64,000 nucleotides of DNA from Candidatus Heimdallarchaeota archaeon (lineage in GTDB: Archaea > Asgardarchaeota > Heimdallarchaeia > Hodarchaeales > Hodarchaeaceae). Shown here piece after piece: positions 44,411 to 47,234 of this stretch (position 1 is the first letter of the stretch; every line of letters begins with the position of its first letter). A program made the translations under genes and the position numbers. The DNA is taken from positions 2,130,571-2,194,570 of the forward strand of contig CP070695.1 in the NCBI GenBank assembly GCA_020353515.1. The letters run 5' to 3'. The notes beneath the pieces are model-generated. The model made no database searches and was not told the DNA's origin. It saw only the letters and a program-made list of their open reading frames with translations.

Positions 44411-45070
44411 ATGAAATCCTTCTTGAGATTATTTTTTCAACAACTCAAAAGTTTAGAGATTAAAATTCTAGGTTTTCGCACTTTTATTGCGACAATGATT
44501 GTTGGAAATTTGCTTGGATCAATTATCGGCTTTTTATATTATTTTCAGATTATAGGTCTTTTTAATTACCCTCCAATCTTATGGATATTGATCCCTGACT
44601 GTCCAATGGCCGTACTATTATTATTAGGGGTTTATCTTCAGAGAAATAACCAGAAATTTGCTAATTTTAATTTTTTTGTATTCATACAAGGTATTCGTGC
44701 AGCTGCTATCACTTTTTTCTTTATTGCATTCTTCGAGTCGTTAGATTTTCCATTTGTTTTTATTGGGCATTTTCTTCTGTTACTGCAAGCTATAGCTATT
44801 CTTCCATTATTGGTTGACATAGAACTTAATAAAGGTACATTTTTCACAGTTGGAATTACAGTAATAAATGATATTTCCGACTTCGTAGGATTTCCAGAAG
44901 TATTTCATCCAACTTTAGTACAACTTTCGACTATTCAACCTGTATTCCCCTGGTTTGGCCTTTTTATCTTCGTGTTTGACGTTTTATTAATATTGTTCGG
45001 ATTAGGATTCAAATGGTTCATGAATTCCCCTGAAGTGACTTATTCCTCCTATTCAAAACTAAGATCCTAG
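44411..45070 (+). CDS. DUF1405-like membrane protein
   Basis: GFLYY, WILIPDCP motif, H and ND..D residues, FHP. Confidence 0.7.
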   Translation: MKSFLRLFFQQLKSLEIKILGFRTFIATMIVGNLLGSIIGFLYYFQIIGLFNYPPILWILIPDCPMAVLLLLGVYLQRNNQKFANFNFFVFIQGIRAAAITFFFIAFFESLDFPFVFIGHFLLLLQAIAILPLLVDIELNKGTFFTVGITVINDISDFVGFPEVFHPTLVQLSTIQPVFPWFGLFIFVFDVLLILFGLGFKWFMNSPEVTYSSYSKLRS

Positions 45071-45211
45071 GATAGGGACTATAGAATTAACTCTGAATAT
45101 CCATCTTCTGTTTACTATTAATCACAATACTCCTATAGGTTAATCTTAGTTTTTGTATCAAAAATCGCTCATTGCTTTATATTGTTGTGAAATCACTAAA
45201 CAATAATATTT

Positions 45212-46819
45212 ATGCTGATTTTTAATGAGAGAATGAGAATGATGAAAAAAAAATATGATACTCCCCTTGCACAAGCAATTGCTGATGCTTATGCAAATGG
45301 TGAGGACGATGAAACTCTAGAACCAATTATTCTCGTAGATGAAAATCATCTACCACAAGGCCGATTAGAATCCAAGGATTCGCTTATTTTCGCAAATATT
45401 CGAGGAGAAAGAGAAGTAGAACTAACCCAAGCTCTCACAGAAGAACGATTTCCACATTTTCCTACTCTTTATCTTAATCTCACTGTATCTACTATGATAA
45501 TGTACCATCCTGATTTGAATGTCAATGTGGCATTTCCCCCGACTGAAAATCTAAATAATAGTATAACCGAATTCTTGAGTAAAAATGGAAAACGAATCCT
45601 AAAATGTGTTGAAAGTGAAAAAGCGATCCATCTTACCTATTTCTTCAATGGAAAACAACATTCAAAATTCCCTAATGAAGATCAAGTAATTATTCCTTCA
45701 CATGAAACAGAAGATTTAACTGAATTTCCTGAAATGAAATCAGCTGAAGTAGCCAATACTACTATCAATGCTATGACAGATGGAAATTATGATTTAATTG
45801 TCACAAATATATCGCCTTGTGACGTTATGGGACATATAGAGAGAAAAGAAGTAGTTGGAAAAGCGATTCATGAAGTTGACGAACAGTTAGGTCGTATAGT
45901 TACTTCTGCAATAACTACTGGGTATACAGTATTTGTTACAGCTGATCATGGAGTTGCAGAATCTTGGCTTTACCCCGATGGAACCATTGACACTGGACAT
46001 ACATCTAATCCTGTACCCTTCTTGATAATTTCTGATAAGACGAGTGAAATACAATTAAGAAGTGGGGGTTCTCTTGTTGACATTGCGCCTACAATTTTAG
46101 AAGTCATGGGCCTTGAAAAACCTAAAGAAATGCAGGGAAAAACTCTCCTGCAGAATGAAATATCATTCAAAAGTCATTATGTTCTCCTATTAATTTTAGA
46201 TGGTTGGGGTTACAATCCAGATTCATATGGTAATCTATTCTTAGAATTTGGCACACCTAATATGGACCAGTTACGAAATGCGTTTCCTTTCACTACTCTT
46301 ATTGCTTCTGGACCACCTCTTGGTATGCCAGAGGGAACAGTTGGTAATAGTGAAATAGGTCATCTACATATGGGGATCGGAAGACGTGTTGTAAGCGATC
46401 GAGTAAGAATATTTGATGCTATTAACAATGGAGAATTCTTCCAAAACAAAGCTTTCCAAGAAGCTATTTCAAAAGCTAGAGAGAATAATACTGCTCTGCA
46501 TCTACTAGGAATTATTAGTTTCTACAGTTCTCATGGTTCAATTAAATACCTTGAAGCGCTAATGGAACTGGCTGAAAGAGAAAAACTTCCAAAAATCTAT
46601 TTACATGGAATGTTAGGACGACGAGGGGAAAAGCCAGAGGCAGGGGCTCATTATGTAAATCAAATTGAGCTTAAGGCTAAAAAAATGGAAAATATCCGAT
46701 TCGTTTCCGTTATTGGTCGTCATTGGGCGCTCGATCGAGAAAAGAATTGGGATAGAATCCAAAAAACTTATGATATGTTAGTCCATGGAAAAGGAAAACA
46801 TATTAAGGATTTTCAGTAG
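45212..46819 (+). CDS. gpmI: 2,3-bisphosphoglycerate-independent phosphoglycerate mutase, circularly permuted
   Basis: All iPGM motifs are present (ILDGWG, GNSEIGH, GRHWALDR, ESEKAIH, DVMGH, TADHG, HTSNPVP, DIAPTIL) but the two halves are swapped. Confidence 0.88.
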   Translation: MLIFNERMRMMKKKYDTPLAQAIADAYANGEDDETLEPIILVDENHLPQGRLESKDSLIFANIRGEREVELTQALTEERFPHFPTLYLNLTVSTMIMYHPDLNVNVAFPPTENLNNSITEFLSKNGKRILKCVESEKAIHLTYFFNGKQHSKFPNEDQVIIPSHETEDLTEFPEMKSAEVANTTINAMTDGNYDLIVTNISPCDVMGHIERKEVVGKAIHEVDEQLGRIVTSAITTGYTVFVTADHGVAESWLYPDGTIDTGHTSNPVPFLIISDKTSEIQLRSGGSLVDIAPTILEVMGLEKPKEMQGKTLLQNEISFKSHYVLLLILDGWGYNPDSYGNLFLEFGTPNMDQLRNAFPFTTLIASGPPLGMPEGTVGNSEIGHLHMGIGRRVVSDRVRIFDAINNGEFFQNKAFQEAISKARENNTALHLLGIISFYSSHGSIKYLEALMELAEREKLPKIYLHGMLGRRGEKPEAGAHYVNQIELKAKKMENIRFVSVIGRHWALDREKNWDRIQKTYDMLVHGKGKHIKDFQ

Positions 46820-47234
46820 ATATGGAACTCAAAAAGTGCTTCATCTGGAATAAAAGCTTTGGAATACTATGATAAGAATAAAGGGTGAGATTTGGAGATG
46901 TATTTCCCGTAATCATGGCTGAAATAACTCTGCCATCTTCATAAACAGCCAAAACTGGCTTATTAAGCGATAAAGCGTAAGCAATTTCATATCCTACTCC
47001 TGTACTAGGAACAGACACTTCTGCAATGACTATGTCACACTCTTGAAGGAAGGAAATATCTTGTGCAAAAATGTCCGTATCAGTCATCGACGTTTCAATT
47101 TCGAAGACTTTAGGTGAAGCTACTTGAGGGGTGAGGATTTCATATCCATTTTCTTGTAAATAGTCATTAATAACCTGATAATTACTTTGCAGTTCACGAC
47201 CCCCTCTTATTGATCCCGAAAGGTAAATTTTCAA
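46803..47234 (-). CDS. 2'-deoxynucleoside 5'-phosphate N-hydrolase (DNPH1/Rcl-like) / nucleoside 2-deoxyribosyltransferase
   Basis: KIYLSGSIRGGR, AEVSVPSTGVGYEIAYA, SAMITG. Confidence 0.88.
   Translation of the reverse strand: MKIYLSGSIRGGRELQSNYQVINDYLQENGYEILTPQVASPKVFEIETSMTDTDIFAQDISFLQECDIVIAEVSVPSTGVGYEIAYALSLNKPVLAVYEDGRVISAMITGNTSPNLTLYSYHSIPKLLFQMKHFLSSISTENP

Follow-up and report, generated by a model that had tools for sequence, protein, structure and literature searches.

Canonical cofactor-independent phosphoglycerate mutases (iPGMs; GpmI or GpmM) are two-domain enzymes in which a phosphotransferase domain (iPGM_N) sits inserted within a Metalloenzyme-type phosphatase domain. 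In the B. stearothermophilus structure, the boundary between transferase and phosphatase presumably falls near residue 310 (numbering of PDB 1EJJ). The substrate ligands of the structures 1EJJ and 1O98 we take to be His123, Arg153, Arg185, Arg191, Arg261, Arg264 and Lys336, with Asp154 presumed to position the acceptor hydroxyl in the pocket loop. ApgM (TIGR00306) and the phosphopentomutase DeoB have the metal-binding phosphatase core in common with the iPGM-family protein described here but, unlike it, carry another inserted cap domain and no iPGM_N domain. To our knowledge, natural circular permutations are rare among the enzymes of central metabolism, and no description of a permuted iPGM family was found in full-text searches of the literature.

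The window analyzed here is a stretch of 64,000 nucleotides from a Hodarchaeales genome. It contains an open reading frame of the iPGM family on the forward strand at positions 45212-46819, as the preliminary description of the locus had it, encoding 535 amino acids plus a stop codon and free of internal stops. The real start is probably Met-11 (nucleotide 45242), which opens the gene as called elsewhere (P0002, a protein of 525 amino acids) and is also where the Atlas record of the protein begins. Residues 1-10 show no conservation and are disordered in the AlphaFold2 (AF2) model, with pLDDT below 50. The octamer TTTATATT (45176-45183, forward strand), 29 nucleotides upstream of the ATG at 45212, is possibly an archaeal TATA box, as read from the sequence.

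A phmmer search of PDB chains returned, against every solved iPGM, two high-scoring stretches in swapped order. Residues 215-509 of Bacillus iPGM (1EJJ) matched query residues 17-313 with 190 bits, and residues 6-215 matched query residues 324-533 with 167 bits (total E 1e-104); two segments in swapped order were what the preliminary description had predicted for an alignment with Bacillus GpmI. Model TIGR01307 gave the same picture, its positions 208-504 preceding its positions 3-212 in the query, so that the collinear GpmI order is absent. Both GpmI domains are present, each in two stretches: the Metalloenzyme phosphatase core (PF01676, 189 bits) and the iPGM_N transferase (PF06415, 163.7 bits). 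The new termini lie near position 215 of 1EJJ, and the rearrangement has neither deleted nor duplicated any residue. It was thus confirmed that the gene encodes a natural circular permutant of a bacterial-type iPGM (GpmI).

All segments of the coding sequence are read from the forward strand. The C-terminal part of the phosphotransferase domain (45260-45547; residues 17-112, equivalent to 1EJJ 215 to ~310) comes first and includes Arg64 and Arg67 (Arg261 and Arg264 of 1EJJ). It is followed by the C-terminal part of the phosphatase domain (45548-46150; residues 113-313, 1EJJ ~311-509), where PF01676 profile positions 61-252 match residues 103-303 and where Lys137 (Lys336), Asp204 and His208 (Asp403 and His407), Asp245 and His246 (Asp444 and His445) and His263 (His462) are found. 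A linker, QNEISFKSHY (46151-46180; residues 314-323), fills the gap between the two aligned blocks and joins the former C-terminus to the former N-terminus, as had been proposed; across the family it is near-constant in length and variable in sequence. The N-terminal part of the phosphatase domain (46181-46396; residues 324-395, 1EJJ 6-77; PF01676 profile positions 3-100) provides Asp330 (Asp12), the catalytic Ser380 (Ser62; nucleotides 46349-46351) and His384 (His66). The protein ends with the N-terminal part of the phosphotransferase domain (46397-46810; residues 396-533, 1EJJ 78-215), in which PF06415 profile positions 3-131 match residues 402-530. This last segment holds His441 (His123), Arg471 (Arg153), Arg503 (Arg185) and Arg509 (Arg191), together with two clade signatures on the forward strand, FYSSHGS (46520-46540) and LGRRGE (46613-46630).

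The AF2 model of the protein has a mean pLDDT of 91.5 and a pTM of 0.87, with pLDDT falling to 82 in the linker block. Foldseek matched it to iPGM structures only, aligning ~297 columns in each, and found no permuted iPGM among the solved structures. The permuted chain begins in the middle of the transferase domain, continues through a phosphatase domain made contiguous by the 10-residue linker over the old termini, and finishes with the transferase domain's first half; the hinges between the two domains are both retained.

A swapped order could in principle be an assembly or annotation artefact, either a mis-joined tandem duplicate or two fragments read through. The grounds for this are purely formal, namely that the source organism is uncultured and contamination of the genome is estimated at 7.4%, and we consider an artefact extremely improbable. 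One unbroken reading frame spans the locus on a closed contig of 4.94 Mb, the gene is single-copy with no tandem copy in the genome, and the AF2 model shows high confidence over the junction. Independently assembled genomes of the genus (G062, G136 and G139) have this order and junction too, as do other Hodarchaeota and hundreds of bacterial genomes, one of them the complete genome of the cultured Syntrophus buswellii. Synteny around the gene is likewise conserved in sister Hodarchaeales. In comparisons with Hodarchaeota orthologues dN/dS is 0.09-0.13; the value of about 0.1 shows that the permuted gene is under purifying selection and argues against an artefact.

A search with clade-specific motifs found relatives in the genomes of at least 441 bacterial or archaeal species. 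Each of the best 80 relatives aligns collinearly with the permuted query, at 45-73% identity, and homologs with the same junction were found in sister Hodarchaeales and many bacterial genomes. The permutant is not a peculiarity of this genome: it belongs to a large and mostly bacterial family whose members occur in several phyla of bacteria and in a few lineages of Asgard archaea. Current annotations call these proteins "phosphoglycerate mutase" or "alkaline phosphatase family protein", according to whether two out-of-order HMM matches add up to more than a cut-off.

In all permuted representatives the breakpoint falls at canonical positions ~203-217. The window protein (breakpoint ~215, signatures F[YF]SSHG and LGRRGE) belongs to clade A, which has support of 98-99. 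Sister to clade A is clade B, which includes the permuted genes of G221 and G258 and protein P0147. Like the window protein, clade B has the signatures SSHG, RGERE, ESEK and D-V-x-G-H; the two differ in overall sequence (37-39% identity) and in the pocket loop, which is LDGRS in clade B and LGRRGE in the window protein. Clades A and B together form one clade (SH-aLRT 99), whose carriers are Syntrophales, Anaerolineae-type Chloroflexota, Aminicenantes and Hodarchaeales Asgard archaea. A third set, group C (P0124, P0130, P0133 and a module in the 5027-residue P0247), comprises a few permuted lineages branching near the canonical enzymes. Its breakpoint and block order are the same as in the window protein, but it keeps the canonical pocket (D-x-G-V-H-S, LDGRD, R-x-D-R, ETEK and DMVGH), whereas the window protein has the derived pocket of clade A.

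Free trees scattered the four canonical-pocket permuted sequences among canonical ones. When all 25 permuted rows were constrained to group together, the likelihood improved (+3.0, with a p-AU of 0.55), so the data are compatible with a single origin of permuted iPGMs. We do not claim several independent permutations at the same site, since the tree with one permuted clade has a slight advantage and was not rejected. The longer homologues P0127, P0131, P0189, P0191, P0207 and P0214 were considered as duplication intermediates and discarded: they are canonical proteins with unrelated extensions, none having a C-half, N-half, C-half arrangement. As a phylogenetic marker, a use that had been suggested for it, the permutation serves for the protein clade but not for the organisms, among which it is patchy and probably horizontally transferred.

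The equivalents of Ser62 and the two-metal ligands (S380, D330, D204, H208, D245, H246 and H263), identified as retained in the preliminary description, are invariant in 119 relatives. The same holds, in 119 close relatives, for the residues that we take to bind substrate (H441, R471, R503, R509, R64, R67 and K137, corresponding in that order to the 1EJJ ligands listed above). All 15 catalytic and ligand positions are kept throughout clade A, bar one deviant sequence at Arg153. Clade B, like clade A, retains the catalytic Ser, every metal ligand and every Arg, Lys and His that serves as a substrate ligand. The canonical GpmI enzymes (TIGR01307; 1EJJ, 1O98, 2IFY, 5VPU and E. coli b3612) have the same two domains, ~36-40% identity over both blocks, an identical catalytic serine and two-metal ligand set, and the same Arg, Lys and His substrate ligands as the window protein. 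The window protein differs from them in being permuted at canonical position ~215, with inverted domain-insertion topology, and in the rebuilding of the Asp151/Asp154 loop.

The conserved LDGRD loop that contains both of these aspartates is absent from the window protein, which has LGRRGE instead. Position 151 is Asp in 137 of 137 canonical representatives and Gly469 in the window protein. Position 154 is Asp in 134 of the 137 and in all four permuted sequences that have canonical pockets; it is Gly in all 29 clade A sequences (Gly472 in the window protein) and Ser in 6/8 of clade B. The other fixed changes from canonical GpmI are R-x-D-R to R-G-E-R, ETEK to ESEK, DMVGH to DVMGH and GVHSH to SSHGS, the last being part of the FYSSHGS-for-DGGVHSH deviation that, like that of the loop, had been noted from the sequence. 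Among the 37 sequences of clades A and B, Val122 is replaced by Ser in all and Asp263 by Glu in 36, and F[YF]SSHG and LGRRGE are fixed within clade A. The altered specificity that had been proposed is a fair possibility, since the motif deviations are fixed or nearly so in both derived clades sampled.

Because the two-metal site, Ser380 and every Arg, Lys and His that holds phosphate or carboxylate are intact, the protein is expected to work in the manner of an iPGM. The phosphoryl group would pass to Ser380 while the transferase domain holds the acid, and would then be returned to a neighboring oxygen of that acid, in a pocket whose Asp151/Asp154 loop has been rebuilt as GRRGE. Our best explanation, to which we give a probability of about one-half, is a folded and catalytically competent enzyme of a monophyletic permuted iPGM branch that is likely to be a non-housekeeping phosphomutase acquired from bacteria. 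Judged from the rebuilt GRRGE loop and the accessory status of the gene (below), its most likely activity would be that of a non-housekeeping phosphomutase acting on phosphoglycerate or a close phospho-hydroxy-acid, with plain 3PG/2PG interconversion nearly as likely.

Loss of the acceptor-hydroxyl-positioning loop with its Asp154, which extends across clades A and B, might also have turned the enzyme into a phosphatase in which water resolves the phosphoserine. The superfamily consists mostly of hydrolases, cross-matches to PF01663, PF00884 and alkaline phosphatase models were obtained, and the operons of sister clade B hold HAD phosphatases and a phosphate transporter. However, the whole transferase domain and five arginines, which a simple phosphatase would not need, are strongly constrained, and clade A itself lies outside the HAD operon. 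We therefore regard hydrolysis as improbable. Weak HMM cross-matches to ApgM- and DeoB-type mutases were also seen over residues ~165-314; the TIGR00306 (ApgM) match was partial, at 30.5 bits against a cut-off of 320.

The question of housekeeping function is informed by the other phosphoglycerate mutase (PGM) genes of the carriers. The preliminary description spoke of a permutant of a core glycolytic enzyme; the protein is not the core enzyme of this organism, whose genome also encodes a bona fide archaeal ApgM (C1:3626933-3628108; TIGR00306, 422 bits) and the dPGM GpmA (400 bits). The permuted gene is an accessory one, the third PGM-type gene in its genome, and was not found in 3/8 genomes of its own genus. 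In each carrier genome checked, a further PGM-type gene accompanies it; even G220, without ApgM and canonical GpmI, has GpmA.

A permuted protein in such a setting could still be one more PGM isozyme, the permutation being neutral and the pocket changes compensatory (Glu473 would take over from Asp154), so that it interconverts 3PG and 2PG beside ApgM and GpmA. Multiple PGM types per genome are common, as in E. coli, which has gpmA besides gpmM. The catalytic Ser and the residues that bind phosphate and carboxylate do not vary, and the TIGR01307 score of 447.7 exceeds the equivalog cut-off of 330.65, although only when two stretches that are out of order are added together (NF003897 gave 358 against a cut-off of 862). 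Permuted sequences with fully canonical pockets exist, which indicates that the permuted topology as such is no obstacle to PGM chemistry, and the stems of clades A and B are of unexceptional length. In Syntrophales, moreover, permuted and canonical forms are anticorrelated: 3 genomes have both, and 35 and 7 have one form only (odds ratio 0.20, p = 0.03, by statistics that ignore the relatedness of the genomes). This mutual exclusion suggests that the two forms do the same job.

Against an isozyme stands the replacement, in every sampled clade A sequence, of both Asp151 and the near-invariant canonical Asp154. Nor was the permuted gene the sole PGM candidate in any carrier genome checked. All 61 sampled Syntrophales have ApgM, and among the sampled Anaerolineae-class genomes canonical GpmI takes the place of ApgM (found in 0/3 genomes with canonical GpmI), whereas the permuted form never does (ApgM in 12/12 permuted-bearing genomes). 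We give the isozyme somewhat less than an even chance.

Gene context ties clade A to no other pathway, which would also suit an isozyme. Among 80 clade A loci no conserved metabolic operon was found, and the contexts are housekeeping-like, with M23 peptidase (36/80), ABC-2 transporter, PCMT, Macro domain protein, IspD and DciA as recurrent neighbors. The locus in the window has the order DENN-like, DUF1405, permuted gene, Nuc_deoxyrib_tr in common with L017 and L018. E. coli has a gpmM-envC linkage, but the M23 neighbor was rejected as a relic of it, similarity to EnvC being confined to the LytM domain (39% over 93 amino acids), and the connection is a weak lead. Clade B operons, in contrast to the clade A loci, contain HAD phosphatases, an ApgM paralogue, a PRK-family kinase and a PHO4 transporter.

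Returning to the non-housekeeping phosphomutase, we tentatively suggest that clades A and B have an unrecognized activity, acting as phosphomutases or phosphotransferases on another phospho-acid and not as PGM isozymes. The change from LDGRD to LGRRGE, with two Asp lost and an Arg gained, might accommodate an extra anionic group such as the second phosphate of 2,3-bisphosphoglycerate. If this is true, permutation came first and active-site remodelling after. There may be an ordered series, from canonical through permuted with a canonical pocket to permuted with a remodelled pocket, and such a series would make the sequence of events in a neofunctionalization testable. The inversion of the domain-insertion relation, with both hinges of a hinge-closing enzyme kept, also provides a natural experiment in how such a protein folds and how its domains move.

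The sequences from Asgard archaea group as a single clade (support 100) within an otherwise bacterial crown group, where their position is a polytomy. The Hodarchaeales lineage probably took the gene from bacteria and has inherited it vertically since, the direction of transfer being indicated by the distribution of the family. Metabolic reconstructions of Asgard archaea and syntrophic bacteria may credit the permuted proteins with a glycolytic step that they perhaps do not perform. For Asgard biology, the permuted gene would be another bacterial acquisition and not a eukaryote-related trait.

The permuted gene encodes a protein of 535 aa in one uninterrupted open reading frame (45212-46819, + strand). 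A phmmer search against all PDB chains matched every solved cofactor-independent phosphoglycerate mutase (iPGM) to this protein as two stretches in swapped order. Residues 215-509 of the Bacillus stearothermophilus enzyme (PDB 1EJJ) aligned with residues 17-313 of the query and residues 6-215 with residues 324-533, with a total E-value of 1e-104. The Pfam profiles PF01676 and PF06415 each fell on the protein as two separate stretches, and the NCBIfam profile TIGR01307 (447.7 bits) matched with positions 208-504 preceding positions 3-212. Both blocks abut the canonical chain at one residue, about 215, showing that no residue was lost or duplicated. Residues 314-323 bridge the old termini. Residues 1-10 are unconserved and were disordered in an AlphaFold2 model; elsewhere the start is called at M11 (nt 45242). 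These searches bear out the preliminary description, which had proposed swapped matches to a Bacillus-type GpmI and a short linker joining the old C and N termini, in every checkable detail.

The gene encodes a real, folded iPGM family member that is circularly permuted and under selection. Its own genome has a single copy, on a closed contig of 4.94 Mb. The same two-match, one-reading-frame arrangement was observed in three further genomes of the genus, and a fourth has a fragment of the gene at a contig end. The products of three other Hodarchaeota loci (L017-L019) are collinear with the window protein at 66-73% identity. The suggestion that the same junction be sought in homologues was borne out in the genus, in other Hodarchaeota and in many bacteria. 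Comparison with four Hodarchaeota orthologues gave dN/dS values of 0.09-0.13, and the GC content of the gene (0.363) matches that of the window (0.352). An AlphaFold2 model based on a 38-sequence alignment had a mean pLDDT of 91.5 and a pTM of 0.87, junction included. Foldseek matches were to iPGM structures only, each over about 297 columns, equivalent to one block; no solved structure of the permuted form was among the matches. The window, L017 and L018 have a common local gene order of DENN-like protein, DUF1405 membrane protein, permuted gene and convergent Nuc_deoxyrib_tr gene. In the window the DUF1405 (PF07187) gene (44411-45070, + strand) encodes a multi-pass membrane protein and ends 141 nt upstream of the permuted gene on the same strand; L017 and L018 have a same-sized gene at this position. 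The Nuc_deoxyrib_tr (PF05014) gene (46803-47234, - strand) encodes 143 aa, and its 3' end overlaps that of the permuted reading frame by 17 nt.

In a word-indexed search, a single local alignment spanned 96-100% of the query for all but one of the 120 listed matches, the exception being a partial protein (P0026, 76% coverage). Among these, sequences from Hodarchaeota, Heimdallarchaeota and Promethearchaeota were 63-85% identical to the window protein, and those from Syntrophales, other 'Deltaproteobacteria', Chloroflexota and Aminicenantes about 50%. Many carry the bare name 'alkaline phosphatase family protein'. When one genome per GTDB species was scanned with two clade-specific motifs, at least 441 relatives were confirmed. 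The best 80 were all collinear with the permuted query; among them are the complete genome of the cultured Syntrophus buswellii DM-2 strain and two metagenome-assembled chromosomes that are closed. Full-text searches, whose coverage leaves out most subscription journals, found no paper on a permuted iPGM, and this large branch is apparently undescribed. In the Syntrophales sample (61 genomes), 38 had a permuted gene, 10 a canonical one and 3 both. In an Anaerolineae-type class (61 genomes) the numbers were 12 (9 of clade A, to which the window protein belongs, and 3 of clade B), 3 and 0. Among 151 Asgard genomes the permuted gene was found in 5/8 of the window's own genus and in one other genome, G025; canonical GpmI occurred in 11, five scoring 625-677 bits and six 360-400 bits. 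G025 belongs to another family and has 9% contamination. Its clade A gene (L099, G025:C27:20726-22348), with a bacterial-like N terminus, was either acquired in a second transfer or sits on a contig that is contamination.

The gene context of clade A was uninformative. Recurrent neighbors encode an M23 peptidase, an ABC-2 transporter, PCMT, a Macro domain protein, IspD and DciA; the archaeal-type iPGM, ApgM, was found within 8 kb in 0/80 loci. The M23 peptidase gene adjoins the permuted gene in 36/80 loci (L017-L096), divergently in Syntrophales and directly upstream on the same strand in Aminicenantes-type genomes. This pairing recalls E. coli gpmM-envC, but the similarity to EnvC is confined to the LytM domain. 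In two Anaerolineae-class genomes, clade B genes lie in an operon with HAD phosphatase(s) and an ApgM paralogue, which suggests a salvage pathway for phospho-compounds. One operon (L102, G221:C188, 2231-6477) has a LacI-family regulator gene nearby; the other (L103, G258:C109, 1280-8015) extends further, to genes for a PRK-family kinase and a PHO4 phosphate transporter.

Among 119 close relatives of the window protein, no variation occurs at fifteen catalytic or ligand positions: Asp12, Ser62, His66, His123, Arg153, Arg185, Arg191, Arg261, Arg264, Lys336, Asp403, His407, Asp444, His445 and His462. They are also kept in wider samples of clades A and B, the few deviating sequences doing so at Arg153. 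We take the roles of the residues discussed here (catalytic, ligand, or loop by the substrate hydroxyl) to be those in structures 1EJJ and 1O98. At several sites where canonical enzymes hardly vary, clades A and B, or clade A alone, carry other residues. Asp154 (134/137 canonical sequences) is Gly in 29/29 of clade A and Ser in 6/8 of clade B; Val122 (124/137) is Ser in 29/29 and 8/8; Asp263 (131/137) is Glu in 29/29 and 7/8; and Met404 (115/137) is Val in 29/29 and 6/8. Asp151 (137/137) and Gly152 (136/137) are Gly (28/29) and Arg (29/29) in clade A and are each kept in 7/8 of clade B. Residue 155 is Thr, Val, Ser or Ala in canonical enzymes, Glu in 28/29 of clade A, and Thr, Ala, Pro or Asn in clade B. 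Four further permuted sequences, group C, have the canonical residue in 4/4 at the first six positions and Thr, Ser or Glu at residue 155. Retention of the 15 positions alongside replacement of near-invariant loop positions indicates, at the level of sequence, that the chemistry-bearing residues are retained and that the loop beside the substrate's free hydroxyl is rebuilt with a gain of net positive charge.

The best 150 matches in a library of 50%-identity representatives included about 15 permuted and 132 canonical proteins, and every permuted protein has its breakpoint at canonical positions of about 203-217. Trees were calculated after rotating permuted sequences back to canonical order. 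Clade A (support 98-99, window protein inside) and clade B (support 100) together form one clade (SH-aLRT 99), and free trees placed group C among or near canonical sequences. Constraining all 25 permuted rows together improved the likelihood by 3.0 over the free search (p-AU 0.55), so the data are compatible with one origin of the permutation. Group C keeps all canonical pocket motifs, and clades A and B have common derived motifs. The simplest history would be permutation first and pocket remodeling second. The Asgard sequences inside clade A form one long-stemmed clade (support 100) in a polytomy with clades largely following bacterial phyla. Together with the narrow, patchy Asgard distribution, this favors transfer: the gene probably passed from bacteria into a Hodarchaeales ancestor, the polytomy being no proof of direction. 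Two giant metagenomic proteins contain iPGM modules, one permuted with a canonical pocket (P0247, 5027 aa, residues 3858-4373) and one canonical (P0220, 2349 aa, residues 893-1436).

The window enzyme is predicted to carry out metal-dependent phosphoryl transfer through a phosphoserine, as iPGMs do; that it acts instead as a phosphatase is very improbable. The suggestion that it is a core glycolytic enzyme did not hold up, as its own genome also encodes ApgM (TIGR00306, 422 bits, G000:C1:3626933-3628108) and the dPGM GpmA (TIGR01258, 400 bits, cut-off 81.7, G000:C1:746743-747474), both outside the window, and thus combines three phosphoglycerate mutase types. Three further His_Phos_1 proteins are encoded there. 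Every other carrier genome checked had another mutase-type gene. ApgM was present in 5/5 and 4/5 of two hand-picked sets, the remaining genome (G220) having GpmA, and in 61/61 sampled Syntrophales genomes. The enzyme could quite possibly be a plain isozyme that still uses 3- and 2-phosphoglycerate: permuted and canonical genes tend to exclude each other in Syntrophales (odds ratio 0.20, p 0.03, uncorrected for relatedness), which hints at equivalence. The Anaerolineae-type class runs counter to this, with ApgM in 12/12 permuted-bearing genomes and 0/3 canonical-GpmI genomes, the latter being among the 12 genomes of the sample that lack ApgM. This contrast, drawn from small numbers of related genomes, suggests that canonical GpmI can replace ApgM and that the permuted form does not. 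We give a probability of roughly one half to the reading that the window enzyme has a non-housekeeping role or a modified specificity, in which its substrate may be a related phospho-acid.
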